Shown here in pieces: positions 4,522 through 27,579 of a DNA stretch of 58,941 bases; the first letter of the stretch is position 1, and each line of letters begins with the position of its first letter. This DNA is from a virus (Duplodnaviria > Caudoviricetes), in the IMG/VR virus record IMGVR_UViG_3300010354_000100, positions 1 through 58,941 of that record; one strand, given 5' to 3'. Made by a program: the position numbers and the translations under genes. The notes under the pieces were generated by a model that did no database searches, had not been told where the DNA came from, and worked only from the letters and a program-made list of their open reading frames with translations.

Positions 4522-4708
4522 TCGGGCCAGAGGCAGGAAATAAAAAACGAAATGTATTTATCAATCATGTTGGTATCAATTGTACAGGCAGCGGGCGCAG
4601 AAACCAACTTTTACCGGAAGAAAATTTCCTCAAGATTTTTTCACGGGAGGTTGTGATGTGTGGCAGAGCATGATACAATCTAAGTACAACCAAATGAAAG
4701 GAATACCA

Positions 4709-5002
4709 ATGACAAAAACAACTATTGAACTTGACGCCAGGATTGAGGAGGCCATTGACAAGGCCATCCAAGCATTCTGGGGAAGCATCGTAGAGAGTTT
4801 TCCGGAATCCACCGGAGGAGACTTTGACCCGATGTACGAAGGCGTCATGTACCACGAGGCGACCGGCTGGCTGCGTCACTGGCTAGAACTAAATTGCCTG
4901 ACCTGCGAGAAGTGCGGGTCGCTGGTGCCGGAAAGCGACGCGTGCTACGAGATGGCAGAAGTTTCGTGCCCGGGTTGTTTTTCAAAGCAGTTCTCCCTAT
5001 GA
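4709..5002 (+). CDS. hypothetical protein with C-terminal Zn ribbon
   Basis: promoter plus AAAGGA RBS; CxxC...CxxC. Confidence 0.7.
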   Translation: MTKTTIELDARIEEAIDKAIQAFWGSIVESFPESTGGDFDPMYEGVMYHEATGWLRHWLELNCLTCEKCGSLVPESDACYEMAEVSCPGCFSKQFSL

Positions 5003-5245
5003 TAGAATGTGATAACAACAACAACCCAATGGAGGTAACTTCCTGAGAAAAGTATTCGGCTGGCTCTTCGTGGCCTTTATCGCTGCCAATGCGAATGCGT
5101 GGGGCATGAGCAATCCGCTCATCCCTGTAGTTCTGCTTGGCGTCATCCTGTATCCATCAATCGTGGGGACCATCGGTCTCTGGCGCTTGCTGAGATTCAA
5201 CTACTTCCCAACACCACTACAACTACTGAAAGGATTCCGCAAGAT

Positions 5246-5491
5246 ATGGCCCGCCGTAAGAAAAGGTCCAGTCGTCACTCGGGTAAGTCGCCCATCATCA
5301 CGTACACCGTGAGTGTCGCGCACGAACCCGGCAGCGAATGCGACGCATGCGCGCAGCCCCGACCTGTTCTGATTGAGCAGGAAGGTGGCGCGTGGATATG
5401 CGAGATTTGCGCCGGCGGTGCAGACGCAGGAGATTTGTGGCGCGCAGCCATGCTCACCGGCGTTTACTCGTGGGGAGGAGACGGACTGTGA
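5246..5491 (+). CDS. small Zn-finger protein
   Basis: CDAC...CEIC. Confidence 0.55.
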   Translation: MARRKKRSSRHSGKSPIITYTVSVAHEPGSECDACAQPRPVLIEQEGGAWICEICAGGADAGDLWRAAMLTGVYSWGGDGL

Positions 5492-5985
5492 AGCAGATTA
5501 CCGACGAAGTCATCCACGACTACCAGGCCAACCTCTGGAAGAGCGCCGTCGAGCGACATGGGACAGCCCTCAAGGTCCCCAGTGACGAGCAGCAGCGCAT
5601 CGGAGAACTGGTCCGCGGTCTCTACGTCATGCAGACGTGGCAGGCACATGGAAGTCAGGGAAACCCTGTGCGGTTCATGAAAGATTATTCAATTTCCATG
5701 AACGTCATAGGAGTACTTATTCCGGCGTTCTTAGGAAAACAAAAACTGGTCGAGATTGAAGAAGTCAAGCCAGTGAAGCGCGCAGACAGATGGCGCACAC
5801 TCGAAGAGTGGGCCAAGAAACATACATACCACGAGGTCACGACGGAACAACTTGTCGAGATTTCCGGATTCTCCTACCAGACCGTACTGAACTACGTGAA
5901 GACTTCACCGTACTTCCGCAGGATTCAGCGCGGGCAGTGGGAAGTCAGAGACCCCAAAGAAGACAGAGCAAGAGAGAAAAACTAA
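5488..5985 (+). CDS. hypothetical protein, possible C-terminal HTH
   Basis: GTG start after GGAGGAG; TTEQLVEISGFSYQTV. Confidence 0.65.
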   Translation: MKQITDEVIHDYQANLWKSAVERHGTALKVPSDEQQRIGELVRGLYVMQTWQAHGSQGNPVRFMKDYSISMNVIGVLIPAFLGKQKLVEIEEVKPVKRADRWRTLEEWAKKHTYHEVTTEQLVEISGFSYQTVLNYVKTSPYFRRIQRGQWEVRDPKEDRAREKN

Positions 5986-6228
5986 ATGGCAAAGAAAACA
6001 GAGTTCCGGCAGCCGCCGGGACCGAGGAACGGCAGCCCATTCCAGGTCGCCAACTTCGTAGAGAAACTTAAAGACAATCCTGGAGAGTGGGCGGTCTACT
6101 GCACCGGCAATATTGCGCGGACCGGTCACTCCAAGGCACAGCAATATAAAAAGCGTTATCCAGGCACGGAGTGGATTGTCCGGCGCGAAGAAGACGGCTA
6201 CACCGTCTTTGGGCGCTGGGTGGGGTAA
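5986..6228 (+). CDS. hypothetical protein
   Basis: abuts the previous gene. Confidence 0.7.
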   Translation: MAKKTEFRQPPGPRNGSPFQVANFVEKLKDNPGEWAVYCTGNIARTGHSKAQQYKKRYPGTEWIVRREEDGYTVFGRWVG

Positions 6229-6237
6229 GGTGCTGCC

Positions 6238-6474
6238 ATGAAGCCACTCACTCTGAGTATCACTATCAACACGTACCGTGAGGGCGTGACGATAGCAAAT
6301 CTCATTCGAGAGCACGACGAAACTGCTGACGTACACCTGCACGAGGCCAAGAGGGGCAACGGGTGGGTCATCGTCTCCCACATCTGCATACCCCAGGAAG
6401 AAACAAACCGGCTACGCAGGCGCATCCGGGAGACCGGTGCCCTGTGCGTGGTGCGGGACGCAGACCAGGCCTAA
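6238..6474 (+). CDS. hypothetical protein
   Basis: AAGG RBS, in operon. Confidence 0.6.
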   Translation: MKPLTLSITINTYREGVTIANLIREHDETADVHLHEAKRGNGWVIVSHICIPQEETNRLRRRIRETGALCVVRDADQA

Positions 6475-6492
6475 GGGAACGGCTCCGCGCTA

Positions 6493-6524
6493 AATAAATC
6501 CGAAATATCTGGAACACCATATTT
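6493..6524 (+). repeat. bipartite repeat copy 3
   Basis: AATAAATCCG-N8-GGAACACCATATTT. Confidence 0.95.
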
Positions 6525-6641
6525 TGGGGACAGGGGCAAGTGAGACAGATTCCCAAAAGTGTCTCAAATAAAATACCGGACAGTTCTTGTGAAATTATGA
6601 ACAAGGTTGCAAAACCAGAAAGAATGTGCTACAATTTACTT

Positions 6642-6890
6642 ATGACAACACAATACCTATTACAGAAAACCAACGACAAGGGCTACCGGCGATTCGTAGC
6701 AAAACTCTTGGGAGACAAGGGCGGAACCACCAGTTCCCTCCATCACGCTCTCACTTGGGACAGCGTGGCGAATGCCGAGACCTTCCGCATCATCAATGGG
6801 CTTCACCAGTTTGAGATAGTTCTCTCTGACGGGACTGATGACCAAGATGCCGAGGCAAAAGCATTCTGGGCGGCAAAGAATGGAAAATAA
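6642..6890 (+). CDS. hypothetical protein (leaderless)
   Basis: ATG 7 nt after the -10 TACAAT. Confidence 0.65.
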   Translation: MTTQYLLQKTNDKGYRRFVAKLLGDKGGTTSSLHHALTWDSVANAETFRIINGLHQFEIVLSDGTDDQDAEAKAFWAAKNGK

Positions 6891-7188
6891 TCTTCACTGG
6901 ACGGATATGCTCCTCGCTGACCCCTCCACAGTTCGTGAATACATCATTGAGGAAGCAATTGACTGGTGGGTGTGTCGTTGCGGCAACAATCCAGACTCAG
7001 ATGGCTTCTCCACGTGTAGCGAAATAGGCGAACGCTGCGAGCCGACCATTGGACAGTGGGACGGCAAGCACTGGCTCTGCGAGTCCTGCTACCGAGTCAT
7101 TGACGGCGACACACTGGAAGTAATCAGTGGTTGTAGCCAAGATGTCGTAAATAAAAATGAGGAATATCGCTGGCACGAAGAGTTGTAA
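6880..7188 (+). CDS. Cys-rich hypothetical protein
   Basis: CRCGN...C...CESC. Confidence 0.65.
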   Translation: MENNLHWTDMLLADPSTVREYIIEEAIDWWVCRCGNNPDSDGFSTCSEIGERCEPTIGQWDGKHWLCESCYRVIDGDTLEVISGCSQDVVNKNEEYRWHEEL

Positions 7189-7244
7189 GACGTGCTAGAG
7201 TATGCTACAATGTAATAACAACCCAATCACAGAAAGAGAAACAA

Positions 7245-7415
7245 ATGAGCAAAACAAAATACCGGTATCACCTTTCGGCTTACCTTTCAGACTTCGTGGA
7301 ATCAACCAACGAGGATGAGGCGTGGGAAGCATTTCAGGAGATGGTCGCCAACGCCAAGTTGCGTGACTTCATCTTTGAGATGCAAGACATTGAGGAACTG
7401 GACGACGCACAATGA
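7245..7415 (+). CDS. small acidic hypothetical protein (not in ORF track)
   Basis: own promoter plus AGAAAGAG leader; MSKTKYRY... Confidence 0.65.
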   Translation: MSKTKYRYHLSAYLSDFVESTNEDEAWEAFQEMVANAKLRDFIFEMQDIEELDDAQ

Positions 7416-7717
7416 CCGTTCTTATCAAGATGCCCTTTGACAAGTGGTGCGAGAAATACCAACCAATCGTCAATGTCTTTGACAAGGATGCGTCGTTTAA
7501 TGACGGCGATTACGGACTTATGTTTGAGACATACGGGAAAGAACTGGACTTTGTTCTTGCCTATGTCAAAGCAAAGCCCCACAATGTCTGGACATACATT
7601 GACGGCGAGGAAGGCACGGTAGTCGTGAACGGCTATCACCTAGTAAATCGCATCGGGTATTTCGTGACCTACCAACCGGCAGAATCCGAGGCTTTCTACG
7701 AAATTGAGGTTTCGTAG
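7412..7717 (+). CDS. hypothetical phage protein
   Basis: ATGA overlap; FETYG.E...VWT...GYH.VNR.GY. Confidence 0.75.
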   Translation: MTVLIKMPFDKWCEKYQPIVNVFDKDASFNDGDYGLMFETYGKELDFVLAYVKAKPHNVWTYIDGEEGTVVVNGYHLVNRIGYFVTYQPAESEAFYEIEVS

Positions 7718-7780
7718 GTTGTCAAGTGTGCTACAATGTGGTACAATGTAAGTATGAACCCAACACAGAAAGAGAACACA

Positions 7781-8017
7781 ATGAAACAATTTATTATCAG
7801 GCAAACCGTTGACCTTGACCTCCAGTGGTTGATTGAGGCGGAGTCTGTGGAAGATGCCCTCGCAAAAGCGTGGGGCAACTTTGACAGCGCCAAAGTCGTG
7901 GACATCTGTCCTCTTGACTGGGACAAGCCGTGGGATGCCGAAGAAGTAGAGGGTAAAGCACCGTCTTTCCTCTCCGCTAAGGAACTCCGCAAGTGGCAGG
8001 AAGTTGGTCTCCTCTAA
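7781..8017 (+). CDS. hypothetical protein
   Basis: cassette promoter and leader. Confidence 0.7.
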   Translation: MKQFIIRQTVDLDLQWLIEAESVEDALAKAWGNFDSAKVVDICPLDWDKPWDAEEVEGKAPSFLSAKELRKWQEVGLL

Positions 8018-8099
8018 CCAGAGGTTGCCAAACCCGAAAATAAGTGATACAATCTAAGTAACAGCAATAACCAACTCAACACAGAAAGATAAAACAACT

Positions 8100-8564
8100 A
8101 TGGGATTAGATATGTACCTTTCCGCCAAGAAGTATTACTCAGGTGCGGATTGGCGAACAGAAGAGAATAAAAAAGACTTTCAGGAACTCCTGAAGAAGTC
8201 GGGTATCGCAAAGTATGTGAAAACCGAACTTGCGAGTATTCAGTTGGAAGTATCCATCGGCTATTGGAGAAAGGCGAACGCCGTTCACCAATGGTTCGTG
8301 GACAACTGCCAGAACGGCGAGGACGACTGTCGCTACGCCTATGTCGGGCGTGAGAAGTTGGAAGAACTGAAGGCTTTGTGCCAGAAGGTTCTTCTCCAGC
8401 CAGCAGTGGCAGACGAAGAACTGCCGACCCAGCAGGGCTTCTTCTTCGGCTCGTACGAGTACGACGAATATTATTTCCACGACATCAAGCACACGGTTGC
8501 CATTATTGACAACTGTCTGGCTATGCCTGATGATTGGGAGTTCTACTACCACTCATCGTGGTAG
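8100..8564 (+). CDS. conserved phage hypothetical protein (MGLDMYL...YWRKAN type)
   Basis: MGLDMYL, YWRKANAVHQWF, GFFFGS..YDE.Y, YY.SSW. Confidence 0.8.
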   Translation: MGLDMYLSAKKYYSGADWRTEENKKDFQELLKKSGIAKYVKTELASIQLEVSIGYWRKANAVHQWFVDNCQNGEDDCRYAYVGREKLEELKALCQKVLLQPAVADEELPTQQGFFFGSYEYDEYYFHDIKHTVAIIDNCLAMPDDWEFYYHSSW

Positions 8565-8727
8565 ACACGACTGGCTGGGCTTGTCTGCGCGACATTGTCA
8601 ACAACGGCAACATGACCCAGCCACTAGTGGCTTGTGGTGGGGAGGGATTTCCCCACCACAGGTTGTTATTAGTGATACAATATGATACAATGTAGTTATG
8701 AACACAACTCAACAGAAAGGCAACACA

Positions 8728-8949
8728 ATGAACTTAGACGAATGGAACAACAGATACCTCGGAGCGGTCATCGCCGTCGCCGAAGGTTCGGCTAAACCGA
8801 CCGACGAGATGGAAGATGGCTTCGCAGGCTTCGTGCTTGATGGCATCTTGGCAATCAAGGATGTCGAGACCGACCTCAACGACTGGGACTTGGTGGAACA
8901 CATCGCAGACTTCTGCGAGATGTCTATCGCCATTCAGGAGCGTTTCTAA
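8728..8949 (+). CDS. acidic hypothetical protein
   Basis: cassette promoter and AGAAAGG leader. Confidence 0.7.
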   Translation: MNLDEWNNRYLGAVIAVAEGSAKPTDEMEDGFAGFVLDGILAIKDVETDLNDWDLVEHIADFCEMSIAIQERF

Positions 8950-9182
8950 TGACGACCATATGGCTTGACATAGAGAGTGGTACCTACTACTCGTGCCCGC
9001 CCCTGCGCATCAGAACAAACGACTGGTTGGCAAAAGACTGGGAGTGCTGGACTGAAACCATGTCTGACTTAGACCGTCAGGCGTGGGGCGAATACCATCT
9101 TCAGTATGGTCAGACTAAACAAGTCCGTCCGTCTGAATGGTGCGACCCAGAAAACGATATTGCGGGATGGCCATACACATGA
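8949..9182 (+). CDS. Trp-rich hypothetical protein
   Basis: TAATG translational coupling. Confidence 0.6.
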   Translation: MTTIWLDIESGTYYSCPPLRIRTNDWLAKDWECWTETMSDLDRQAWGEYHLQYGQTKQVRPSEWCDPENDIAGWPYT

Positions 9183-9259
9183 GCAAGGTCACAATCGTCC
9201 TCGCTCTGTGCGTTATCTACTTGGCAGCAGTAATCATCGGAAGAAAGGCAGTCAAATGA
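9179..9259 (+). CDS. 26-aa single-TM peptide
   Basis: ATGA overlaps at both ends; MSKVTIVLALCVIYLAAVIIGRKAVK. Confidence 0.5.
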   Translation: MSKVTIVLALCVIYLAAVIIGRKAVK

Positions 9260-9402
9260 ATATTCACATCAAAGAACCACACGAGTTCACGCCCGAGGAA
9301 GCCCGGAGGTTTATCCAAGCAATCTTGGACTACCAGCCGGAAAGCCGGTGGGAAAGACTCAATAATTGGCTCGCAAAGGTTGTGAGACGACGCAATAAGT
9401 GA
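9256..9402 (+). CDS. small hypothetical protein
   Basis: ATGA overlap. Confidence 0.5.
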   Translation: MNIHIKEPHEFTPEEARRFIQAILDYQPESRWERLNNWLAKVVRRRNK

Positions 9403-9451
9403 TACAATTGAGTTGTAAGCAATACCAACCCAACAACAGAAAGAGAACATA

Positions 9452-10129
9452 ATGCCAAACTGGTGCTACAGCAACATAGACATCATCGGTGACCGGGACG
9501 AACTCCAGAGTTTCGTTGACGCAACCAAAGTTGTCGCAGAGGACGGAGTTGTCCATCACGGACTAAACCACCTCTTCCCAATTCCAGCAGAACTCCAAGC
9601 AACGCCGTCGGCGTGGTACGGAGACGCAGAAGAGCAGGCTAAGCAGACCGCCCTAGAAGAGGCGATGTTTGCTAAGTACGGCTACAGGAACTGGTACGAC
9701 TGGGCTTGCGACGACAAGAACTGGTCTACCAAGTGGGGTGCGTGTGACTTTGAGTGGACTTCGTTTGATATGGATGACAACTACATCGTCGGACCGACTG
9801 AGCCGTACATCTCTGCGAAATACCAGAGTGCGTGGGGTCCAGCAGACGGACTCATCCGCAATATCTCAGCCAAGTTCCCGAAACTTATCTTCACCGTGGT
9901 CTCCACAGAAGAGAGCGACGCATTCGTCTGCTACTCCATCTTCCGTAACGGATTGCTGGAAGCAGAAGGCGGTGAGGAGCCGGTACAGCCGAAAGAACTT
10001 GAGGAACTCTACGAGAAGGACCCTGACGCCTTCTACGAGCAACTCGGTGACTGGCAGTGCGAGTACCAAGACAAATGGTCCAATGAGTGCGACAAGGCTC
10101 TCTCTGGGCTGATGTCCAGCCAGAACTAG
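9452..10129 (+). CDS. DUF1281/YubB-like ferredoxin-fold protein
   Basis: MPNWC.N, NWYDW...NW.TKW, SAW.P motifs. Confidence 0.7.
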   Translation: MPNWCYSNIDIIGDRDELQSFVDATKVVAEDGVVHHGLNHLFPIPAELQATPSAWYGDAEEQAKQTALEEAMFAKYGYRNWYDWACDDKNWSTKWGACDFEWTSFDMDDNYIVGPTEPYISAKYQSAWGPADGLIRNISAKFPKLIFTVVSTEESDAFVCYSIFRNGLLEAEGGEEPVQPKELEELYEKDPDAFYEQLGDWQCEYQDKWSNECDKALSGLMSSQN

Positions 10130-10141
10130 GTCAATATGTGG

Positions 10142-10386
10142 GGGGTGACAGATTGTCACCCCTACTACATATTGTATGTGACACCCGACACAAGGGGTGA
10201 CAGTTTGTCAGGAGGGGGGTGACAGATTGTCACCCCTACCCCGGACACTACTGTCAGGGGGGGGTGACAGATTGACATTCCTTAACTGGTACAAGACCTC
10301 GGGAAACCCTTACCCAATAAGGCTTTGCGGGGTTTACGAATTTCCTAACCGTCCCTTAACCGTATTTATAACCGTCACTTAACCAC
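10142..10386. repeat. iteron-like palindrome cluster
   Basis: GGGGTGACAG(A/T)TTG(T/A)CA at 10142, 10194, 10216, 10261; TAACC(G/A) at 10346, 10357, 10369, 10380. Confidence 0.85.
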
Positions 10387-10479
10387 AACGCGCACATAAA
10401 TGTGCACGGAGGTTGTGAATGGTTAGACAACAATGTATAATGAAGATGTAATACCAACCAACATAGAAAGAAGAAAGCA

Positions 10480-10647
10480 ATGAGCAAGACCAAGACCAAG
10501 GCGCCAGCCTCCAAGTACCCACTCATCGCATTCCGCTTGACTGCAGATATGCAGAAGCAGATTGCGGTTGCGGCGAAGGAAGACGGCATCAGCAAGTCGG
10601 CTGTCATCAAGTCCGCCATCGAGGCGTACCTCAAGAAGCGCGGCTAG
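10480..10647 (+). CDS. ribbon-helix-helix (CopG-like) DNA-binding protein (not in ORF track)
   Basis: IAFRL...IAVAAKEDGISKSAVIKSAIEAYL. Confidence 0.75.
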   Translation: MSKTKTKAPASKYPLIAFRLTADMQKQIAVAAKEDGISKSAVIKSAIEAYLKKRG

Positions 10648-10699
10648 TCAACGTCCCTCGGGCTGGACACACCCAGCCCAAGGGAACGACACAGCGCTA

Positions 10700-10730
10700 A
10701 ATAAATCCGATATCCAAGGAACACCATATT
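10700..10730 (+). repeat. bipartite repeat copy 4
   Basis: AATAAATCCG-N8-GGAACACCATATT. Confidence 0.95.
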
Positions 10731-10858
10731 GTGTGGCAGGGGCAGTTTTACTGCCGGCCCGGACACCTCCAAGATTTTTTCATAAGAGGTTGTGTCTGTG
10801 TCCACTATGTGGTATCCTTGAATCATAAGCAATAACCAACCCAAGAAAGGCAATAGAA

Positions 10859-11304: not shown

Positions 11305-11313
11305 CCTGACCGC

Positions 11314-17095: not shown

Positions 17096-17099
17096 AACT

Positions 17100-21142: not shown

Positions 21143-21340
21143 ATGAACCACTACATACACGCACACGACGTAAAGGCGGAGGACGTAATAGTTACCGTCA
21201 ATGGCAATCCCTACGACAGCGCATCGCTGACCGTTGAGATTACCGACACGAACCGCAATACGACCAGCATCCACTTCTACACGAACGAATTGCTGGAAGT
21301 CCTGCGAAAGTTCGCCCAAGAAGCCGTAGCCGTACGCTAA
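21143..21340 (+). CDS. hypothetical protein
   Basis: AAGGAG RBS, cassette. Confidence 0.7.
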   Translation: MNHYIHAHDVKAEDVIVTVNGNPYDSASLTVEITDTNRNTTSIHFYTNELLEVLRKFAQEAVAVR

Positions 21341-21461
21341 CGGCTGGGCTGGCGGTGGGACGAGAAGCGCCCACCGCCAGCCACCGGGCGACAGAGGCAG
21401 GCGGGCAAGAATTCCCCCCGCACGAGTTGCAAAACTATCAGGAGTGTGATACACTAGAACT

Positions 21462-21602
21462 ATGAGGAAACAACAGCACAACAACAAGCGCCGAGCGTGG
21501 AACGCAACAGACCGACAAGCATACGCCGACGGGCTGCGCACACGAGCGGTGACTATCCACCACAAGCGCAAGCCTGCGCCGACAGTCCGAGAATGGGACT
21601 GA
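21462..21602 (+). CDS. small basic protein (leaderless, not in ORF track)
   Basis: ATG 7 nt after the -10; MRKQQHNN... Confidence 0.55.
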   Translation: MRKQQHNNKRRAWNATDRQAYADGLRTRAVTIHHKRKPAPTVREWD

Positions 21603-21708
21603 ACAGCGGGCCGGCAAAAATAATCCTCTCAGGAGTTGCGAAACTCTCAGGAGTGTGATACACTAATAGTAGTGGGGCAAAAGCCTCACCTAACCAAAGG
21701 AGAAAAAA

Positions 21709-21867
21709 ATGAAAGAACATAACTGGACATTCGTAGACGAGGACAGCATCCGCTGCTCAGACTGCGACTGCCGTTTTGGTGGACGCTGGCACGACCTGCC
21801 CTGCGGTTCGTCGGAGGAGGAGTACATCGCCTTCGCCAACGCTCGCCAGAGCGAATACCTCAAATAA
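21709..21867 (+). CDS. small Cys-rich protein (not in ORF track)
   Basis: AAGGAG RBS; H.W...CSDCDC...PCG resembles the 16162 gene. Confidence 0.65.
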   Translation: MKEHNWTFVDEDSIRCSDCDCRFGGRWHDLPCGSSEEEYIAFANARQSEYLK

Positions 21868-21952
21868 GCCGAGACGCCCCGCGGGTTCCACCTCCTTCCC
21901 CCGCGGGGCAATTCGGGGCCGCCGGGCGGGGCCCAAGGAACGCTCAGCGCGA

Positions 21953-21984
21953 AATAAATCCGAACATTCTGGAACACCATATTT
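21953..21984 (+). repeat. bipartite repeat copy 10
   Basis: AATAAATCCG-N8-GGAACACCATATTT. Confidence 0.95.
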
Positions 21985-22190
21985 TCGGAAGCGGGCGGAG
22001 GCAGATTGTGAAAGTTCGCACTTTCACAAGACCGAGGAAGGCCGACCACTCTCCGTGACTAGCCGACCACTCTCCGTGAAGTGTAACAATTGTGTGACAT
22101 CTGCCGAAATCGGGAGTAAATGGTACACCCATAGTGTACACTGTTATTAGTGGGGAAAACGCCCCACCTAACCAAATGGAGGTAAGCAGA

Positions 22191-22523
22191 ATGAAAATCA
22201 CACTAGAACATCTCACTTCGGGCGTAGCCCGAAAAGTGGAGTACTGGTACGGCGAATGCGACCCAGCCGAAATTGAGGATGGCGTACTTGACGTAACCTA
22301 CGGCACTTTGGAAGTTACCTTTACTTCGGGACGCTCTTATGAGTACGCCGAAGTCACGGTAGGAACCTTTGCCGAACTAATCAAGGCAGTGAGTTTCGGC
22401 AAGTTTCTCAATCAGGAAATCAAGCCGTACCACGAGGTTCGTGAGACCACCCCAGCCGAATTGCTCGCCGAAATCAAGGCAAAGCAGGCTGAGGCAAAGG
22501 CTCTCAAAGCCTCGCTCGCCTAG
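22191..22523 (+). CDS. KTSC-domain protein
   Basis: GTLEVTFTSGRSYEY..V....LI.A.SFGKFLN.EIK. Confidence 0.8.
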   Translation: MKITLEHLTSGVARKVEYWYGECDPAEIEDGVLDVTYGTLEVTFTSGRSYEYAEVTVGTFAELIKAVSFGKFLNQEIKPYHEVRETTPAELLAEIKAKQAEAKALKASLA

Positions 22524-22720
22524 TCGGGTCGGGTCGGTGGGGCGAAAGCCTCACCGACCACCACCGGGCAGGGGCAGTTTGTGCGTTCTGGTATGTCTGT
22601 CTAACAGCCCACTAGACGCAATAGGAAGCGATTAGAGAGGCTCTACAAAAAAGATAAGACTAGGGCAGAATAACTACCTTGTCTCACAGCCTGAGCAATC
22701 TGGAAGCGTCTGGCAAGGGG

Positions 22721-22734
22721 CGAACATACGTTCG
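22721..22734. promoter_or_regulatory. LexA (SOS) box
   Basis: CGAAC-ATAC-GTTCG. Confidence 0.75.
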
Positions 22735-22870
22735 GTCGGCGGGCGAAGAGCACCGGGCAGCGGGCTTGTGAAAAGTTTCTTTTGTTTGGAGTTGCGAAAC
22801 TGTCGCAAGTGTGATACACTTTTATTAGTGGGGCAATCGCCTCACATAACACAACAAGGAGAAAAAAGTA

Positions 22871-23119
22871 ATGCGACACAAAGGAATGGTGGCAAGTGCC
22901 GAAGTGGTACTTAGCCCGACAATTGAGTACGGAGTCCGTACTGAGTGGGCAATAGCCCTCCACTTTCAGAGCCCGACTGGTGACAGTTCGGACTTTATGG
23001 TGCGAGAGTTGCCCTGCCTCTCACGAGAGCAGGCAGTCATTATTGCCGACAAGTGGAATAGCGAAGTATGCCCCGAACTGGTGGGCAGGTTCGCAGTATC
23101 CGACCTGTTGCCGAACTAA
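22871..23119 (+). CDS. hypothetical protein
   Basis: AAGGAG RBS. Confidence 0.7.
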   Translation: MRHKGMVASAEVVLSPTIEYGVRTEWAIALHFQSPTGDSSDFMVRELPCLSREQAVIIADKWNSEVCPELVGRFAVSDLLPN

Positions 23120-23296
23120 CCAACCCAAAAGGGTGGGGCGAAAGCCCCACCCGACAGGGGGCGGCAGAGGCAGCGGGCGAATTCTGTAACACAAAAGTAA
23201 CAAAAAAAAGTGTGTTTCGGGTTGACAACCGTACACCCTTGTGATACACTGTAATTAGTGGGGAAAACCCCACTACAACACAAAGGAGAAAACCAA

Positions 23297-23536
23297 ATGA
23301 ACGGAATAGTCGGAACAAGGGTGGCAATGCCAGCCAACCCAACAGCGTGGCTGAGGGACAACGCTCGCAAGGGCGCAATGCTCTACACCCGAGACGGCGT
23401 GACCGTGGCACTGGTGAACACCCAGACCACCTACGGAGACCCAGACAAGGGCACCCAGCAGCACCCCCTCTACGCCCCCCAGGGCGAGGGCAAGCGGGTC
23501 TACTCGGCTCGCCCAGTAATGCCAATGCTTGACTAA
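23297..23536 (+). CDS. LRDNAR-family paralog 2
   Basis: TAWLRDNARKGA..TRDGV...TY.DPD.G.Q.HPL. Confidence 0.75.
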   Translation: MNGIVGTRVAMPANPTAWLRDNARKGAMLYTRDGVTVALVNTQTTYGDPDKGTQQHPLYAPQGEGKRVYSARPVMPMLD

Positions 23537-23743
23537 GAACCCCCGAAGGGGAAGGGCGAAAGCCCTTCCCCGAACGGCGGGCAGAGGCAGCCCCCGGGCG
23601 AGCGGGCGTTTCTGTATGTCTGTCTAACACCCGATTAGAAGCGTCAGGAAGCCCCAGGACGCGAGCAGAAAAAAAGTGGAGACTAGGGCAGAATAAATAG
23701 TCTGTCTCACAACCTGACGCACTAGGGCACGTCTGGCAGAGGG

Positions 23744-23757
23744 CGAACGTATGTTCG
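23744..23757. promoter_or_regulatory. LexA (SOS) box
   Basis: CGAAC-GTAT-GTTCG. Confidence 0.75.
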
Positions 23758-23842
23758 CTCGGAGGGCGAGGAAGGCAGCGGGCCGGCAAAAAAAGTTTCT
23801 CTCGGAGTTGACAAACCGCTTAGGCTGTGATACACTAATAAC

Positions 23843-24130
23843 ATAAGCAACAACGGCGAAAGCGGGTAGTCCGCTAGTAACCAGACAACTAGCAGCCCCC
23901 ACTCTCTGGGCAACAATCCCCGTGAGAAGATAAGTGGCGACCCAAGCGGTCGGGCAAACGGGTGCGACGTTGGCGGTAGGTGAAAGCCCTACGACATACA
24001 ACCCCGAAAGGGGTGAAACGCGCCAAGGCTTCGGCGTGCGAGACGCACGTTACGGCTACGAAGCAAGAGGGCACGGTGAGGCTTTACCTGACGGGCAACA
24101 ATCCCCTAGTAGGCAAAGATAGCCACCCGC
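23843..24130 (+). ncRNA. putative highly structured ncRNA of about 290 nt
   Basis: promoter at 23807, no RBS-led ORF, closing helix 23862-70/24122-30, many hairpins, two GGG-CAACAAT-CCC stem-loops. Confidence 0.65.
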
Positions 24131-24234
24131 AGCGGGTGAGAACCCCGCAAAAATAATTCTCTCAGGAGTTGACAAACTCCCGAGGGTGTGATACACTGGA
24201 ATTATCAGGCAATAACCAACCCAAGGAGGAAACA

Positions 24235-24489
24235 ATGGACACAATGGATTATCTCTCGGCAGAGCAGGTCAACGGAATAGACCCATTCTGCGAATGGTGC
24301 GGGCGGGTCACCTGCCACATTGGGGAGCACGAGCACGAACTGGCGCTAGGGCTTGTCACCTACGAGGAGAACAGTTACGTCAAGGTAACCGCCCTCGGGT
24401 ATGCGGTCAAGGCGAACGAGGAGGTTTCTCGCAAACTCTCGGATGCGCTCTACGGGCTCTACCTCATCGAGGGAGAGGTTGCTCAATGA
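24235..24489 (+). CDS. hypothetical protein (CxxC..CH)
   Basis: AAGGAGG RBS. Confidence 0.7.
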   Translation: MDTMDYLSAEQVNGIDPFCEWCGRVTCHIGEHEHELALGLVTYEENSYVKVTALGYAVKANEEVSRKLSDALYGLYLIEGEVAQ

Positions 24490-24617
24490 GACTCCAACTA
24501 TTGCTCACCTGCCCCGAATGCGGGCAGACGCTCACGAGGGAGGAGATGGCTTACGGTCACGACTGCGAAGTCCCAGCCGAAGGACAGTGGAGCCCCGAGG
24601 AGGACGATAACGCCTAG
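24486..24617 (+). CDS. small Zn-finger peptide
   Basis: ATGA overlap; CPEC...YGHDCE. Confidence 0.6.
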   Translation: MRLQLLLTCPECGQTLTREEMAYGHDCEVPAEGQWSPEEDDNA

Positions 24618-24858
24618 CCCCCGGGCAGCGTTGCCGAAGGGCGGCAGAGGCAGAGGAGAGAGGCGGCGGGCGAGCGGGGCGGTCTCTCCCCGACTTTTCC
24701 TCCCTGCCCCTCTACTTCCATTGTAGCACAACCCGACGCAAAAAGCAACCTCTAAAAATAAATTTTTTTTCTTCCCGTAAGAGTTGACAGTACGCCCCAC
24801 ACTTGGTACAATGTAGTTGTAAGGCAATCCCGCCTTACAAACAGAAAGAGGTAACTCA

Positions 24859-25101
24859 ATGAGTCAAGTCCAAGAAGGTGAGATGGTGAACGTGTTCCAG
24901 TTCCGCTTTCTCATCCACTGCTACATCACAGAGATTCTCTCAGGTCTCCGTGTGTGTCAAATCCCACTGAGCCGAGTCGCCCCACGATTCGGTGTCACCA
25001 CCAAGAACAAGAAGAAGGCACTCACCCAACTCCTCGCCAACTACGAGGCAACAATGGGCGAGCCTTACGAAGACGACCGCCTAGTGCGAATCTTCGGCTA
25101 G
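24859..25101 (+). CDS. hypothetical protein
   Basis: GAGG RBS, cassette. Confidence 0.7.
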   Translation: MSQVQEGEMVNVFQFRFLIHCYITEILSGLRVCQIPLSRVAPRFGVTTKNKKKALTQLLANYEATMGEPYEDDRLVRIFG

Positions 25102-25167
25102 CGAGTCCGCTCGGGCAGGCAACCCCTGCCCGAGCACTTTCGCACGAGGGCGGCAGAGGCAGGCGGG

Positions 25168-25181
25168 CGAACGTATGTTCG
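25168..25181. promoter_or_regulatory. LexA (SOS) box
   Basis: CGAAC-GTAT-GTTCG. Confidence 0.75.
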
Positions 25182-25441
25182 CCCCCGGGCGATGAGAGCG
25201 GCGGGCTGCGGCGGTGGCGGGCCGAGGAGAAGAGAGGCGGCGGGCAAGAAGGGCGGCGGGCCAGAGCCGAGGAGGGAGACGGTCTCTCCCCTCCCCCACT
25301 ATCAGTGTATCACATCTAAGCGAATTTGTCAACCTCAAAAGATTTATTTTTTTTTGGCGTTTTAGGTTGACAAATGTCTGACAATACCCTATACTGGAAT
25401 TAGTGGGGAAAACCTCACCTAACACAATAAAGGAGAACAAA

Positions 25442-25516
25442 ATGACTAACGAAGAGTTCCTCGCAAAGGTTGCCGAGATTGTAGAAGAGATTCTCGCAAT
25501 CGTTGACGAAGAGTAA
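25442..25516 (+). CDS. 24-aa acidic amphipathic micropeptide
   Basis: own promoter plus AAGGAG RBS; MTNEEFLAKVAEIVEEILAIVDEE. Confidence 0.6.
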   Translation: MTNEEFLAKVAEIVEEILAIVDEE

Positions 25517-25601
25517 ATAAAAAATAGGGGTTCGGGTTGACAAAAGCCCGAACCTCTGTTATACTTAGATTAGTAGGGAATACCAACCAAAGGAGAACAA
25601 A

Positions 25602-25748
25602 ATGGAAAACGAAGACCTAGACAGAATTATCTGGAATGAGTACGAGGCAGGCTGGTACGGAGTGCCAGTAGGCAAGTACACCTACCGACAAATGCTCGCC
25701 AAGTGGAGAGCCGAAAACGAAGAAATCCGAAAGGCGAAAGCCAACTAG
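25602..25748 (+). CDS. small hypothetical protein
   Basis: own promoter plus AAGGAG RBS. Confidence 0.65.
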   Translation: MENEDLDRIIWNEYEAGWYGVPVGKYTYRQMLAKWRAENEEIRKAKAN

Positions 25749-25909
25749 GACCGAGAGTCCCGAAGGGGGAGGGCGACCTCCCCCGAGAGGGGCGACAGGG
25801 GCAGCCCCGGGCGGCGGACAAGAAATATTTGCCCGAGAGGTTGACAAATCAAAAGTAATGTGATACACTGGTTTTAGTAGGGAATACCAACAACAAAAGG
25901 AGAAACACA

Positions 25910-26119
25910 ATGGATAAGAACAAGCAACTACAAAACCTCGCCGAGGAGTTCTTCGGTGAGTGGGCAATCGTCGCCAGCGACATTCCTGCTGTCGTGAAGA
26001 CTTTCGCCCGATACCTTCGCAGTGAGAAGGGCTTCACGCTCAACATCACCGACGAGGCGTGGGAGCGCTACACGGCGGGCTGGTTCGCCAAGCGGCTCTC
26101 GCCAGCGGGCCGCCGCTAA
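25910..26119 (+). CDS. hypothetical protein
   Basis: own promoter plus AAGGAG RBS. Confidence 0.7.
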   Translation: MDKNKQLQNLAEEFFGEWAIVASDIPAVVKTFARYLRSEKGFTLNITDEAWERYTAGWFAKRLSPAGRR

Positions 26120-26225
26120 ACCCCAAGGGGAGAGGCGAGAAATATTTGCCCACGGAGTTGACAAACCGAGGGTGGTGTGATACACTGGAATTATCAGGTA
26201 ATAACCAACACAAAGGAGAAACATA

Positions 26226-26423
26226 ATGAAGGAATACACACTGGTAGCAGAACTCACCGACGCAGAGGGTGGCGAGTGGACGGCGGACGCCGGAATCCTC
26301 GCAGCCGATGATGCGTCGGCAGTTCGTCAGGCTCGCATTTGGGCAAAGGACGAGGCGACGGCACAGGGTGCCAAACTCGTCGAGTTCTACGCTCAGGATG
26401 CCCAGGGCGTGGCGCACCGCTAA
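26226..26423 (+). CDS. hypothetical protein
   Basis: own promoter plus AAGGAG RBS. Confidence 0.7.
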   Translation: MKEYTLVAELTDAEGGEWTADAGILAADDASAVRQARIWAKDEATAQGAKLVEFYAQDAQGVAHR

Positions 26424-26444
26424 ACCCCCAAGGGGAGAGGCGAG

Positions 26445-26458
26445 CGAACACTTGTTCG
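26445..26458. promoter_or_regulatory. LexA (SOS) box
   Basis: CGAAC-ACTT-GTTCG. Confidence 0.7.
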
Positions 26459-26583
26459 CCCTCCCCTGAGGGAGGCGGCAGAGGCAGAAATAGGAGGGCG
26501 AGCGCAAAAAATGTTCGCCCGAGAATGCTTGACAAATGTCAGAGAGTGTGATACACTGGTATTAGTAGGGAAAGGAGACCCGA

Positions 26584-26712
26584 ATGACACCAAGAGACCA
26601 GAACAGAATCACGAGGGACGAGCACGAGGTCGTACCGATTTACGACTGGGCGCTTGACCCCGAAATGAACGAGGACTTCGCCCAGTGGGCTGAGGAACTC
26701 GCCGAGGGCTGA
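26584..26712 (+). CDS. small acidic protein
   Basis: own promoter plus AAGGAG RBS. Confidence 0.6.
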   Translation: MTPRDQNRITRDEHEVVPIYDWALDPEMNEDFAQWAEELAEG

Positions 26713-26871
26713 GAGGTCCGAGGAGAAGGGCGACAAAAGAAAATAGTCCTACCAAGGGGGACGGCCTTGCCTGACGGCGGGCCTCCCCCGAGGAGGAGAA
26801 GGATTCCGGAGGGAGAGGTTGTCTTTCCCCGAGGGAAGTTGTATAATAAAAGTAACAAGAAAGGGAAAGTA

Positions 26872-26937
26872 ATGCATTGGGCGTTCGGATTCGCACTCGT
26901 TGCGCTAACCATTCGGTTAGTCGGAAAGAGTCAATAA
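26872..26937 (+). CDS. 21-aa hydrophobic micropeptide
   Basis: promoter with TATAAT plus AAGGG RBS; MHWAFGFALVALTIRLVGKSQ. Confidence 0.45.
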   Translation: MHWAFGFALVALTIRLVGKSQ

Positions 26938-27007
26938 CAAAGGTTGCAAAAACTCAAGACATCTGTTATACTAATAACAGGGCAGAGAGAAAGGAAAAGG
27001 TAAACAC

Positions 27008-27103
27008 ATGGTTATCGAAATTTATGACTGGATGTGTGCCGTGCCGGTGGCAGTTGCTGCCGTCGTCATCGCCGTCATCTTCAAAGCCAAGAAAATGAAG
27101 TAA
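27008..27103 (+). CDS. 31-aa single-TM peptide
   Basis: promoter plus AAGG RBS; ...VPVAVAAVVIAVIFKAKKMK. Confidence 0.55.
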   Translation: MVIEIYDWMCAVPVAVAAVVIAVIFKAKKMK

Positions 27104-27360
27104 TCCAAGGGCGCAGCCCTGCGGGCGAGTGTGTTCGCCTGCGGGGCTCGCCTACGGGCGAGGCTTGTGAAAATCTGCACGAACCACGGGCGGCGGGCAA
27201 GAGCGGAGGAGAAGGGCGACCATCTCACGATTTTGGTCAAAACCCGAGGATGCGGCGGGCGAAGAGAGAAAAAAATGTGCCGCGGGAGTTGCGCGCGGGC
27301 TGAATCTGTGATACACTGGGATTAGTGGGGAAAACCCCACCAAACACAAAGGAGAAGACA

Positions 27361-27579
27361 ATGAAAACCATCAACGAGCAAGCACAAGAAATGCGAGAGT
27401 TACTGAGCCACTTGGTCTCCCGGATAGACGAAGCGGTGAACCAAGCCAACGAGGAAAGCGACAAGGAGTACGCAGACAATCAACTCGCAGATGAGTTGAG
27501 CAGCGTGGCCTTCCGGTGCGACCACCTCGCCTACGACTACAAGTACGGCCAAGACATCCTCCGAGCCTCCGAGCGGTAA
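27361..27579 (+). CDS. hypothetical helical protein
   Basis: own promoter plus AAGGAG RBS. Confidence 0.7.
   Translation: MKTINEQAQEMRELLSHLVSRIDEAVNQANEESDKEYADNQLADELSSVAFRCDHLAYDYKYGQDILRASER

Follow-up and report, generated by a model that had tools for sequence, protein, structure and literature searches.

Introduction

T4-type phages carry, in the hyperplastic regions of their genomes, early promoter/stem-loop cassettes known as PeSLs, which combine portable regulation with recombination sites and for which terminator and promoter activity and mini-circles were demonstrated experimentally (PMC2839356; PMC4122927). The host-takeover module of phage SPO1 comprises 26 genes in 12.4 kb that are organized in operons in the terminal region, with small early genes featuring promoters and ribosome-binding sites (RBS) of the highly expressed type that are read by the main holoenzyme of the host (PMC6873191). 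Here, we analyze a ~24-kb array of small genes and predicted promoters in the IMG/VR virus record IMGVR_UViG_3300010354_000100, the whole of which (58,941 bp; estimated completeness 43%) constitutes the window of this study (W). The pre-early/early region of T5 and the early region of T4 are similar to the SPO1 module, and actinobacterial phages are commonly portrayed as promoter-poor, with their genes in long operons. We put at roughly 75% the probability that the array is an accessory and most likely early region of a freshwater actinophage, built of SigA-type cassettes whose control sequences double as points of exchange.

Promoters and organization of the array

The array holds 49 predicted promoters and 58 small open reading frames (ORFs), all on the + strand (Table 1). 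We defined strict promoters by the regular expression TTGNNN-N(11-15)-TGNTANNNT, which has 41 matches on the + strand of the window, 38 of them within 4651-27289 and three elsewhere, the motif being nearly absent from the other 30 kb, and three on the - strand. In all 38 array sites, the arrangement is TTGNNN-N14-TGNTANNNT, that is, a spacer of 17 bp, and 11 looser sites recognized by eye, three of them weak, complete the set. The core TGTGATACANT (at most one mismatch) matches 39 times in the window, against a mean of 2.49 and a maximum of 7 in 100 shuffles, with 34 of the matches on the + strand between 6625 and 27317, and a generic sigma-70 scan of 4600-24599 returned 30 sites where 11.4 ± 3.5 are expected. 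The near-consensus motif that a preliminary description, made from the sequence alone, had reported for this region is thereby borne out. So is the existence of an array of the proposed kind (about 45 promoter-leader-gene-hairpin cassettes over 23 kb), the term self-contained fitting only part of it. The earlier statement that nearly every small ORF has a promoter of its own holds for about three in four: 44 of the 58 ORFs are the first gene behind a promoter, while 14 lie further down in short, often overlapping operons.

The promoter consensus, aaaaa-N13-aG TTGc.AaA-N9-TGTGATACAcT, includes an A-run near -50, and the AT content upstream of the promoters is 55% versus 46% for the array. The extended -10, TGTGATACA(A/C)T, agrees at every letter with the SigA -10 consensus of Corynebacterium glutamicum, tgngnTA(c/t)aaTgg (PMC1779776). 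The features of actinobacterial SigA promoters, namely an extended -10 of the form tgngnTA(c/t)aaT and a TTGNNN -35 at 17 ± 1 bp, are present; a conserved TTGNNN -35 at exactly 17 bp is rare in the SigA promoters of hosts, and the phage set is far more uniform. Leaderless mRNAs are frequent in actinobacteria, and the four leaderless genes of the array, which had been picked out before (6642, 17100, 18033 and 21462), fit this habit, the A of the ATG lying 7 nt past the last T of the -10 in all four.

The control sequences drift along the array, much as first described. The -35 reads TTG(T/C)NN as far as 22792, and of the 10 strict promoters between 23222 and 27289, 8 have TTGACA. The RBS is AGAAAG(A/G) from 7245 to 15319 and switches at ~15.8 kb, being GGAG/AAGGAG from 15824 on with one exception at 24859. 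We distinguish three sub-arrays (Table 1). In sub-array I, 3′ hairpins are few and there are several operons of two to five genes, and in sub-array II the leaders are A/C-rich, begin with a hairpin at the predicted +1 or are missing altogether, most genes are followed by a 3′ GC hairpin and a G-rich box (G-box), and seven copies of a 55-nt element (element E) are found. Tandem or overlapping promoters occur at 7727/7737, 8671/8681 and 14942/15013, and duplicated overlapping -10 boxes 10 nt apart are seen in two promoters (7727-7747 and 8671-8691). The genes at 7781 and 8728 each have an additional in-frame ATG at the predicted +1 (7754 and 8698), 27-30 nt ahead of the RBS-led ATG, and could possibly be made in two protein forms. 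Promoters without an ORF, also part of the preliminary description, number five (13595, 14942, 15013, 19138 and 23808); two of them, P13595 and P19138, stand in tandem upstream of gene promoters. The three strict matches on the - strand stand back to back with + strand promoters, each parted from its partner by an A/T-rich spacer and with no ORF behind it, and would yield antisense RNA into the C-rich complement of the G-rich tracts.

Coding content and cassette turnover among relatives

We compared the window with five related viral records (G001-G005, of which G004 is nearly identical to G003). A gene caller using codon usage and RBS recovers the array ORFs, and the ratio of non-synonymous to synonymous substitution rates (dN/dS) indicates that they are genes under purifying selection: it is below 0.5 in 60 of 61 orthologue pairs, i.e., in 30 of 30 between W and G002 (median 0.15) and in 30 of 31 between G001 and G003 (median 0.23). 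A Pfam scan of 54 array proteins, run in alignment mode, which leaves the matching members unnamed so that ORFs were assigned by inspection, listed 17 families, many of them overlapping helix-turn-helix (HTH) models; they include DUF932, XRE-type HTH, ribbon-helix-helix (RHH), two KTSC, DUF4241 and a few weak ones. By our reading, the matches cover ~8-10 of the 54 proteins, and such a low yield is usual for phage early and accessory genes. The two KTSC matches are assigned to the paralogue pair ORF 19293-19550/22191-22523, and our guess is that a weak DUF1281_C match belongs to ORF 9452-10129. The interval between the latter ORF and the RHH gene's promoter contains the palindrome GGGGTGACAG(A/T)TTGTCACCCC four times (10136-10280), in what looks like an operator or iteron cluster.

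A pattern derived from element E matched seven related viral contigs. In each related record, the -10 motif occurs 11-37 times on one strand, gathered near an end of the contig; strict promoters number 20-39 per contig, and among 2.9 million IMG/VR viral contigs multiple matches to the promoter pattern are found in this clade alone. The 50-kb right arm of the Brevibacterium phage Cantare has no strict promoter on its coding strand and carries its genes in long packed operons; therefore, the array is not a general trait of the wider group. All five related contigs break inside the array: the two ends of G001 (L034/L035) overlap by exactly the 11-nt -10 box, and both ends of G002 (L036/L040), like those of G001, lie in or beside the array, the equivalent of W 22.6-27.8 kb being missing or unassembled in G002. 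These breaks are an effect of repeats and population heterogeneity on assembly, and no terminal repeat is definable from the window and the contig ends of the relatives.

The comparison with relatives that the preliminary description had proposed showed that gene order is not invariant. Protein clustering of five arrays gave 82 families, of which 18 occur in five arrays, 10 in four, 9 in three, 16 in two and 29 in one; variable cassettes break up a conserved backbone gene order, W and G001 differ by a reshuffling of the right half, and W has four sets of paralogous cassettes. Between W and G002 (84-90% identity), a 1.2-kb three-gene insert of G002 sits exactly between a TGTGATACACT -10 and the leader TAAATAGAAAGG, with a second promoter closing the insert. 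A unit present only in W (the gene 11878-12165, P12148 and its 100-nt structured leader) ends on the right at the ATG at 12281, and in G002 this structured leader stands before the orthologue of a different gene (W 7781). Elsewhere, a plain promoter of W has as its G002 counterpart element E plus a TCTGTCTAACA-type promoter, the junction being at the -10. Between G001 and G003, a 351-bp cassette is flanked by ~30 nt of leader/Shine-Dalgarno (SD)/start homology (ACCAACA.AAGAAAGG.AAG.AAATGGCAA), a 1-kb insert extends from the end of a hairpin as far as the A-tract ahead of a -35, and a 1.4-kb replacement has its limits at +16 of a promoter and at a G-box. Counting all such differences, 26 of 68 junction ends fall within -45..+60 of the end of a strict -10, intervals that cover 14-18% of the arrays, which amounts to a ~2.4-fold enrichment over the area covered; the two ends of a junction in two genomes are not independent (effective n about half of 68). 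The earlier proposal of swapping through shared promoter/leader homology is supported by these junctions in the -10 and the leader/SD; others lie at hairpin ends, G-boxes and element E.

Contigs from a high-depth lagoon metagenome display further joints of this kind, which are element-to-element (17902>20162), promoter-to-promoter with a chimeric promoter (22784>26544) or between paralogous hairpins (20600>23542), and the 11885>12281 deletion recurs among them. At 90% likeness these contigs are relatives that show alternative neighborhoods, not events, and their backward-running joints are indistinguishable from rearranged relatives.

Leaders, hairpins and structured RNAs

The 5′ ends of the cassettes are of four types, i.e., unstructured A/C-rich, with a +1 stem-loop, with a three-way-junction leader, or leaderless. 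The A/C-rich leader GCAATA(A)CCAAC, which the preliminary description had taken to be the stereotype of the array, exists but is confined to ~16 of the 38 strict cassettes. Hairpins with a 5-9-bp stem that begins 7-8 nt past the -10, corresponding to the predicted +1 or +2, are displayed by 10 of the 38 promoters of W and by 7-11 in three of the four other arrays, with none in G005. Their stems (e.g., GTGGGC/GCCCAC, GTAGGGC/GCCCTAC, GTGAGGT/GCCTCAC and TGTAAGGC/GCCTTACA) vary across cassettes yet, as judged by eye, remain complementary. A 5′-terminal stem-loop is a classic shield against RNases that depend on the 5′ end, and the +1 hairpins potentially protect the mRNAs in this way. In a longer variant, the loop is replaced by two hairpins joined by GUAA(A/G), resulting in a three-way junction of ~60 nt with the closing stem GUGGGG/CCCCAC (W 12177-12250 and 12790-12850). 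Such leaders are also found in the arrays of G002, G003 and G005, before different genes in each genome and once, in G003, solitary between two promoters.

We scored as a 3′ hairpin any perfect GC-rich stem of at least six pairs within 70 nt of an ORF, a definition that misses bulged stems, and found one behind 27 of the 58 ORFs, with stems of 6-15 pairs lying outside the -35/-10 region; four of the 27 are really the promoter or the 5′ hairpin of the next cassette. In keeping with the first description, none of the 27 is followed by a T-rich tail (at least five T in the next 10 nt); its picture of cassettes ending in a hairpin fails for the first third of the array (4.7-13 kb), where such hairpins are nearly absent. 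Canonical terminators are not enriched in a generic scan (27 against 24.6 ± 4.5 expected, four on the + strand). The loops at 15517, 16418, 18969 and 21891, and those of orthologues in G001 and G003, contain (A)CCTCCTT, which equals the anti-SD end of 16S rRNA, and the next G-box often has GGAGG. We rejected these loops as anti-SD-like elements, CCTCCTT occurring 8 times in the window against 7.0 expected, though four of the copies are in hairpin loops.

The 230-nt non-coding stretch preceded by P14942 and P15013 lies at the same place in all five arrays and is their best-conserved part (92.9% between W and G002). Of the 71 pairs in its RNAalifold prediction, 32 are kept through two-sided changes in at least one sequence, and the 3′ closing strand overlaps the -35 of P15269; we regard 15048-15290 as a well-supported new structured RNA. 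The 300-nt stretch behind P23808 has a fold z of -2.24 (moderate support) and no homologue in the compared parts of the relatives' arrays, that of G002 being incomplete there. Rfam has no match for the 15048-15290 RNA, the three-way-junction leaders, element E or the 23.8-kb RNA, and at E up to 1 it returned just five chance-level microRNA/snoRNA matches over 4600-29600.

Element E and the G-box

Element E is 55 nt long, with the consensus CCAAGGGAACGGC-N8-AAATAAATCC(G/A)A-N7-GGAACACCAT(A/T)TTTT-GGG. Its GGAACACCAT core has 11 copies in W, on the + strand throughout, against 0.06 expected, and 7-11 copies per relative, co-oriented with the array and inside it or a few kb upstream. The element is positioned after a 3′ hairpin and before a G-box, at block boundaries, and precedes the same gene families across genomes (families 6 and 23 in five of five, family 16 in four of five, and also families 2, 25, 30, 33 and 35); the promoters downstream of it are often weaker or have the spacer TCTGTCTAACA. 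Two contigs from RNA libraries cross a copy and end 50-100 nt beyond it. No actinobacterial genome among 185,579 species representatives has the pattern, the eight single matches being in other phyla, and we detected no helical phasing between the element and the next promoter (R at most 0.26).

Several identities were considered for element E and discarded. As an RNA structure, its single folds disagree and RNAalifold of 39 copies yields -0.3 kcal/mol. A promoter of the extracytoplasmic function (ECF) sigma type is defined by a conserved GGAAC -35 and a conserved -10 at 16-18 bp; some W copies have GGAAC-N18-TCCGA, and the would-be -10 varies over the 39 copies (TCCGA, ACCAT, TCCAA and TCAAA). 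Promoters of the sigma-54, Bacteroidetes or sigma-70 types were ruled out by eye on the same variable -10, a tRNA 3′ half or attachment site on its spacing, and a host-derived copy on the scatter of its eight single matches over 596 Gb of genomes. We tentatively favor a factor-dependent terminator or an insulator that would shield regulated promoters from read-through; a promoter for a phage-modified polymerase and a protein-binding site of another kind are both less probable identities. Between the element and the next promoter, CCACTCTCCGTG and its complement CACGGAGAGTG recur, often in tandem (Table 1), and are probably operators.

The G-box, GGCAGRGGCAG with at most one mismatch, has 21 copies between 4526 and 27718, all on the + strand, against 2.07 expected. 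In the five arrays, the distance from its core CAG(G/A)GGCA to the next -35 clusters at 24-25 (13 cases), 35-36, 45-46, 53-57 and 64-65 nt. With orthologues removed, the distances are phased with a period of 10.25 nt (n=31, Rayleigh R 0.68), and the same phase persists without the main mode (n=19, R 0.52, p about 0.006), in a post hoc test on partly paralogous copies of a G-rich tract that itself has an internal 10-11-nt repeat. Because of this helical phasing, the G-box is better viewed as acting at the DNA level on one helix face than as an RNA element, and the distances point to centers near -56 and at -56 minus whole turns. A further repeat of ~170 nt (22583-22760 and 23603-23760), which begins GTCTGTCTAACA...TAGACGCAATAGGAAGC, has no clear promoter or ORF, and similar sequence is found in G001 and G003.

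Phage identity, host and occurrence

The right half of the window codes for the large terminase, portal, prohead protease and HK97-type major capsid protein (34-56 kb), with the terminase genes beginning ~5 kb after the array end, and also for a class II ribonucleotide reductase and a subtilase. Replication and nucleotide-metabolism genes are present, and the genome is ~105 kb or more. The capsid protein shares 44-47% identity with its counterparts in Gordonia phage GMA6 and Cantare. Genes of the WhiB family are found in all five related records, and the WhiB profile matches Corynebacterium alone among 14 control genomes; their presence in a phage indicates that the host of W is an actinobacterium, an assignment made at the level of the phylum. 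Freshwater actinophages with several whiB genes are a known group, and the accessible part of their description makes no mention of promoters (PMC10914622). Cultured phages gave no megablast match to the whole array. Neither a tyrosine integrase nor sigma-70 region 2 (Sigma70_r2) was found in any of five records (43-79% complete), and we rejected a phage sigma factor on the latter result, weak r4-like HTH matches in the small-terminase region being the only ones.

A single tRNA gene, tRNA-Thr(TGT), is the sole Rfam match in the window that passes the gathering score; ~220 nt 5′ of it (30428-30726), the -10-like box TGTGATATACT is the sole near match to the array -10 to the right of the array. 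Inverted DnaA-box-like 9-mers (TTATCCACAgccTGTGGATAA and related) occur at 13563-13583, 27990-28005 and 29375-29395. The segment from 27.6 to 29.5 kb is GC-rich (59%) and contains a perfect 21-bp hairpin (28526-28574) as well as (CA)13 near 29120; it may serve as an origin or in packaging.

Sequences from a 10-kb piece of the array were found in at least 24 runs from at least 15 studies (aquatic, freshwater, lake, lagoon and aquaculture); among the runs listed, 4 of 24 are RNA libraries, from three studies. We examined the 32 contig pieces listed out of 749, all of them assembled contigs. Half of the 16 listed array pieces from two metatranscriptome libraries start 6-18 nt past a predicted +1 (at 13638, 15310, 21474, 10466, 15794, 16137, 19686 and 22161), as does one of the eight listed pieces of the DNA run X2. 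These starts offer only a hint of transcription.

Table 1. Features of the array and its surroundings (positions in the window unless a relative's contig is named; P marks a predicted promoter).
Feature	Position	Strand	Description
Whole array	4651..28494	+	49 promoters, 58 small ORFs; ~24 kb
Sub-array I	4651..13315	+	-35 TTG(T/C)NA; -10 TG(A/C)TACAAT; A/C-rich leader; RBS AGAAAG(A/G)
Sub-array II	13595..23119	+	-35 AGTTGC(A/G)AAAC; -10 TGTGATACA(C/A)T
Sub-array III	23222..27579	+	-35 TTGACA; -10 TGTGATACACT; RBS AAGGAGA; ORFs of 21-84 aa
P4651 cassette	4651..5002	+	TTGTGA/TGATACAAT; ORF 4709-5002 (97 aa)
P4979 cassette	4979..6474	+	looser (TTTTCA-18-TAGAAT, TG); five-gene operon: ORFs 5043(CTG?)-5312, 5246-5491, 5488-5985, 5986-6228, 6238-6474
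P6607 cassette	6607..7188	+	leaderless ORF 6642-6890; overlapping ORF 6880-7188
P7183 cassette	7183..7717	+	ORFs 7245-7415, 7412-7717
P7719 cassette	7719..8017	+	two overlapping -10 boxes; ORF 7781-8017; in-frame ATG 7754 at predicted +1
P8025 cassette	8025..8564	+	GCAATAACCAAC leader; ORF 8100-8564 (154 aa)
P8663 cassette	8663..9402	+	two overlapping -10 boxes; ORFs 8728-8949, 8949-9182, 9179-9258, 9256-9402
P9380 cassette	9380..10129	+	ORF 9452-10129 (225 aa)
P10413 cassette	10413..10647	+	TTGTGA-17-TATAAT; ORF 10480-10647 (RHH_1/CopG, assigned by inspection)
P10790 cassette	10790..11469	+	-10 TGGTATCCT; ORFs 10859-11086 (HTH_3/XRE match, assigned by inspection), 11104-11304, 11314-11469
P11447 cassette	11447..12165	+	ORFs 11517-11891, 11878-12165 (latter absent from G002)
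P12148 cassette	12148..12748	+	~100-nt three-way-junction leader 12177-12280; ORF 12281-12748
P12761 cassette	12761..13315	+	second three-way-junction leader; ORF 12881-13315
P13595	13595..13623	+	looser (TTGTGG..TACATT); tandem, 70 nt upstream of P13664
P13664 cassette	13664..14828	+	ORF 13746-14792 (DUF932, 348 aa); 12-bp hairpin 14800-14828
P14942	14942..14970	+	tandem with P15013; no ORF
P15013	15013..15297	+	conserved structured non-coding RNA ~15048-15290
P15269 cassette	15269..15540	+	ORF 15319-15495; bulged hairpin, CCTCCTT loop
P15748 cassette	15748..16081	+	spacer TCTGTCTAACA; +1 hairpin; ORF 15824-16045; hairpin 16052-16081
P16091 cassette	16091..16389	+	ORF 16162-16389
P16502 cassette	16502..17095	+	ORFs 16575-16922, 16919-17095
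P17065 cassette	17065..17288	+	leaderless ORF 17100-17288, paralogue of 16919-17095
P17291 cassette	17291..17816	+	+1 hairpin; ORF 17376-17786
P17998 cassette	17998..18353	+	TCTGTCTAACA spacer; leaderless ORF 18033-18353
P18331 cassette	18331..18662	+	+1 hairpin; ORF 18408-18641
P18742 cassette	18742..18988	+	ORF 18792-18947; 14-bp hairpin
P19138	19138..19166	+	looser (TAGACA..TGGTATCCT); hairpin alone before P19212
P19212 cassette	19212..19586	+	TCTGTCTAACA; +1 hairpin; ORF 19293-19550
P19641 cassette	19641..20040	+	+1 hairpin; ORF 19716-19997; hairpin
20296 cassette	20296..20629	+	TGTGATACAAT -10, no clear -35; +1 hairpin; ORF 20356-20598; hairpin GGGTGGGGCGAAAGCCCCACCC
P20690 cassette	20690..21031	+	ORF 20740-20985; hairpin
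P21075 cassette	21075..21340	+	ORF 21143-21340
P21427 cassette	21427..21602	+	leaderless ORF 21462-21602
P21636 cassette	21636..21867	+	+1 hairpin; ORF 21709-21867, paralogue of 16162-16389
22114 cassette	22114..22559	+	weak promoter, -10 TACACT ends 22142; +1 hairpin; ORF 22191-22523; hairpin
P22792 cassette	22792..23152	+	+1 hairpin; ORF 22871-23119; hairpin
P23222 cassette	23222..23571	+	+1 hairpin; ORF 23297-23536, paralogue of 20356 and 28222; hairpin
P23808	23808..24150	+	~300 nt without RBS-led ORF; candidate RNA
P24169 cassette	24169..24645	+	GCAATAACCAAC leader; ORFs 24235-24489, 24486-24617
P24784 cassette	24784..25135	+	+1 hairpin; ORF 24859-25101; hairpin
P25366 cassette	25366..25516	+	looser (TTGACA-17-TATACT); +1 hairpin; 24-aa ORF 25442-25516
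P25537 cassette	25537..25784	+	ORF 25602-25748; hairpin
P25841 cassette	25841..26119	+	ORF 25910-26119
P26158 cassette	26158..26460	+	ORF 26226-26423; hairpin
P26529 cassette	26529..26712	+	ORF 26584-26712
26819 cassette	26819..26937	+	looser (TTGTCT-17-TATAAT); 21-aa ORF 26872-26937
P26944 cassette	26944..27148	+	31-aa hydrophobic ORF 27008-27103; 15-bp hairpin
P27289 cassette	27289..27579	+	+1 hairpin; ORF 27361-27579
28148 cassette	28148..28494	+	weak promoter with GTCTAACA; ORF 28222-28494, third 20356-family paralogue
Minus-strand promoter	15685..15713	-	strict; back to back with P15748
Minus-strand promoter	24720..24748	-	strict; back to back with P24784
Minus-strand promoter	25304..25332	-	strict; back to back with P25366
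Element E, partial	3587..3601	+	GGAACACCATATTTT block alone, 1 kb left of array
Element E, copy 1	4466..4522	+	degenerate left half
Element E, copy 2	6469..6525	+	
Element E, copy 3	10676..10732	+	
Element E, copy 4	13450..13506	+	
Element E, copy 5	15543..15599	+	
Element E, copy 6	17845..17901	+	
Element E, copy 7	19005..19061	+	
Element E, copy 8	20103..20159	+	
Element E, copy 9	21929..21985	+	
Element E, copy 10	27876..27932	+	
CCACTCTCCGTG/CACGGAGAGTG repeats	17930-17970, 20215-20235, 22040-22080, 27735-27775, 27985		
G-box starts	4526, 10735, 13516, 15605, 15626, 16454, 17909, 19604, 20165, 20642, 21038, 21390, 21994, 22567, 23163, 23580, 24643, 25152, 25794, 26477, 27708	+	
230-nt structured RNA	W 15048-15297; L036:8562-8811(-), L033:9570-9838, L037:9408-9676(-), L039:5019-5265(-)		
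WhiB-family genes	158-355 (+), 31749-31940 (-)		frames of 191 and 118 aa; conserved in relatives

Proposed mechanism and alternative explanations

We propose that the array comprises ~48 autonomous cassettes, each headed by a near-consensus predicted promoter for the housekeeping sigma factor of the host. A cassette would read, in order, as a promoter that is A-rich near -50, one of the four 5′ ends, a purine-rich RBS and a mostly ORFan ORF of 20-350 aa, followed in the right two-thirds of the array by a strong GC hairpin that lacks a U-tract, together with a G-rich box. Upon DNA entry, host RNA polymerase would fire all cassettes, with the +1 and 3′ hairpins likely to stabilize the short mRNAs and damp read-through, and the ~ten blocks that start with the 55-nt element and a weaker, operator-bearing promoter could constitute a second layer of control. 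The same control sequences, by recurring every 0.5 kb, would be portable recombination sites. Relatives differ by whole cassettes, duplicated cassettes and swapped leaders, with junctions inside these sequences, and the array would therefore be a platform for both expression and gene shuffling.

Several observations weigh against this proposal. The hairpins lack U-tracts, so termination is not assured, and two RNA-library contigs read through a hairpin and element E. The notion of a self-contained cassette fits part of the array, its first third being hairpin-poor and operon-rich, and element E and the G-box leave part of the regulatory logic unexplained. The RNA-library data are assembled contigs, which are no proof of transcript starts, and DNA carry-over is possible. 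With respect to exchange, 42 of the 68 junction ends lie outside the promoter/leader interval, clean junctions share only a short homology (9-30 nt), and selection that keeps genes whole would by itself also place junctions between them. These last points feed an alternative that we consider possible though distinctly less probable, in which the array is a plastic accessory region where illegitimate or microhomology recombination occurs everywhere and selection keeps the junctions that leave genes intact, the repeats not being drivers. Mosaic junctions at gene borders are general in phages, and the cleanest junction here shares just ~10 nt. Such a process does not account well for junctions that fall within the -10, the leader/SD/ATG, hairpin ends and G-boxes rather than anywhere intergenic, for the indel flanked by ~30 nt of direct leader homology, for the ~2.4-fold enrichment over covered area, or for the element-to-element and promoter-to-promoter joints with chimeric promoters in metagenome contigs.

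Other readings concern what the promoters do. They might require a factor of phage or host origin that binds the G-box, or else SigA might need a WhiB-type partner, so that the array would be delayed or conditionally activated. The phasing of the G-box with the -35 and the presence of two WhiB-like proteins and of HTH/RHH proteins encoded by the phage speak for such a factor; we nevertheless regard this as unlikely, since sub-array I has promoters and almost no G-boxes, the -35, spacer and extended -10 come so close to consensus that an activator would normally be unnecessary, and the phasing possibly stems from the 10-11-nt internal repeats, given a post hoc test on partly paralogous copies. 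More doubtful still is the idea that the array, which in the preliminary description may also sequester host RNA polymerase, is mainly a sink, in which dozens of promoters titrate the SigA holoenzyme of the host and the small ORFs are secondary. It draws on the density of one promoter per ~0.5 kb over 24 kb, on the promoters without an ORF and on the tandem or overlapping ones, and is weakened by the purifying selection on 60 of 61 ORF pairs and by the fates of the ORF-less promoters, two of which precede the conserved structured RNA with its 32 covarying pairs while two others are upstream tandem partners of gene promoters. Expression from a prophage, as a moron or immunity region rather than a lytic early one, seems very improbable: the XRE-type HTH and RHH genes with operator-like repeats and the operator-like spacer TCTGTCTAACA of some promoters are what such a region might display, set against the lack of a tyrosine integrase in five records (43-79% complete), the absence of the element pattern from actinobacterial genomes among 185,579 species representatives and the size and replication gene content of the genome. 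Finally, an undescribed regulatory grammar is conceivable, though we would not bet on it, in which the G-box is a factor site, element E is a factor-dependent insulator/terminator or the promoter of a second, phage-specific transcription class, and the array, with two or more temporal layers, arose independently of the T4 PeSLs. Under such a grammar, the G-box, at whole helical turns from the promoter, would be the site of a factor acting on RNA polymerase, element E would be tied to a fixed subset of genes, and the +1 hairpins, mobile leaders and structured RNAs would add up to a self-diversifying platform.

Comparison with known systems

The closest precedent for the array is provided by the PeSLs, which the preliminary description had not named. 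PeSLs share with the array a strong early promoter of the sigma-70 type (predicted here) with an A/T-rich upstream part and an associated GC stem-loop (stable in PeSLs, predicted in the array), an SD and start codon at the 3′ end of the motif, a placement mostly before ORFans in variable regions, and indels between close relatives that are bounded by the motifs. They differ in that the motif sequences are unrelated, PeSLs are spread over several regions while the array is one contiguous, co-oriented stretch of 24 kb, and the PeSL stem-loop lies within the promoter while that of the array comes after the stop codon or at +1; the array also adds leaderless genes, the 55-nt element, the phased G-box and embedded structured RNAs, in a phage with an HK97-type capsid, WhiB genes and an actinobacterial host. 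By analogy, the array would work like the PeSLs without being a member by descent, its phage, with that capsid and WhiB, not being a T4-type myovirus. Like the SPO1 module, it is a cluster of small genes with strong RBS and predicted strong promoters of the host type, and unlike it, it packs ~58 ORFs and 49 promoters into 24 kb; no sequence similarity between the two was seen, though none was sought. The SPO1/T5 host-takeover analogy is reasonable, and expression of the array would most likely be early. The array resembles an integron in that small, mostly unknown genes stand co-oriented in series and relatives differ by whole cassettes, but it has no integrase or attC sites, and its cassettes have their own promoters where those of integrons are promoterless; exchange would instead proceed by general or phage recombination at the control sequences. 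Cantare and GMA6 share the capsid and virion module type and an actinobacterial host, Cantare being without the array. In our searches of the literature, which did not extend to subscription journals, we found no account of such an array in an actinobacteriophage.

The array clade, widespread in fresh water, has a design opposite to that of the usual actinophages. It offers an independent second case of the PeSL principle, which supports recombination at control sequences as a general route of accessory-gene turnover. Its ~48 predicted promoter/leader/terminator parts form a graded natural series for actinobacteria, its ~58 small, selected and mostly unknown proteins are prime candidates for host-takeover and anti-defense functions, and the unexplained cis elements and one new structured RNA are directly testable. 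The principle is known from the PeSLs of T4-type phages and from early modules of the SPO1/T5 type; the novelty lies in the lineage and the density, in the leaderless and +1-hairpin designs, and in element E, the phased G-box and the structured RNA embedded in the array.

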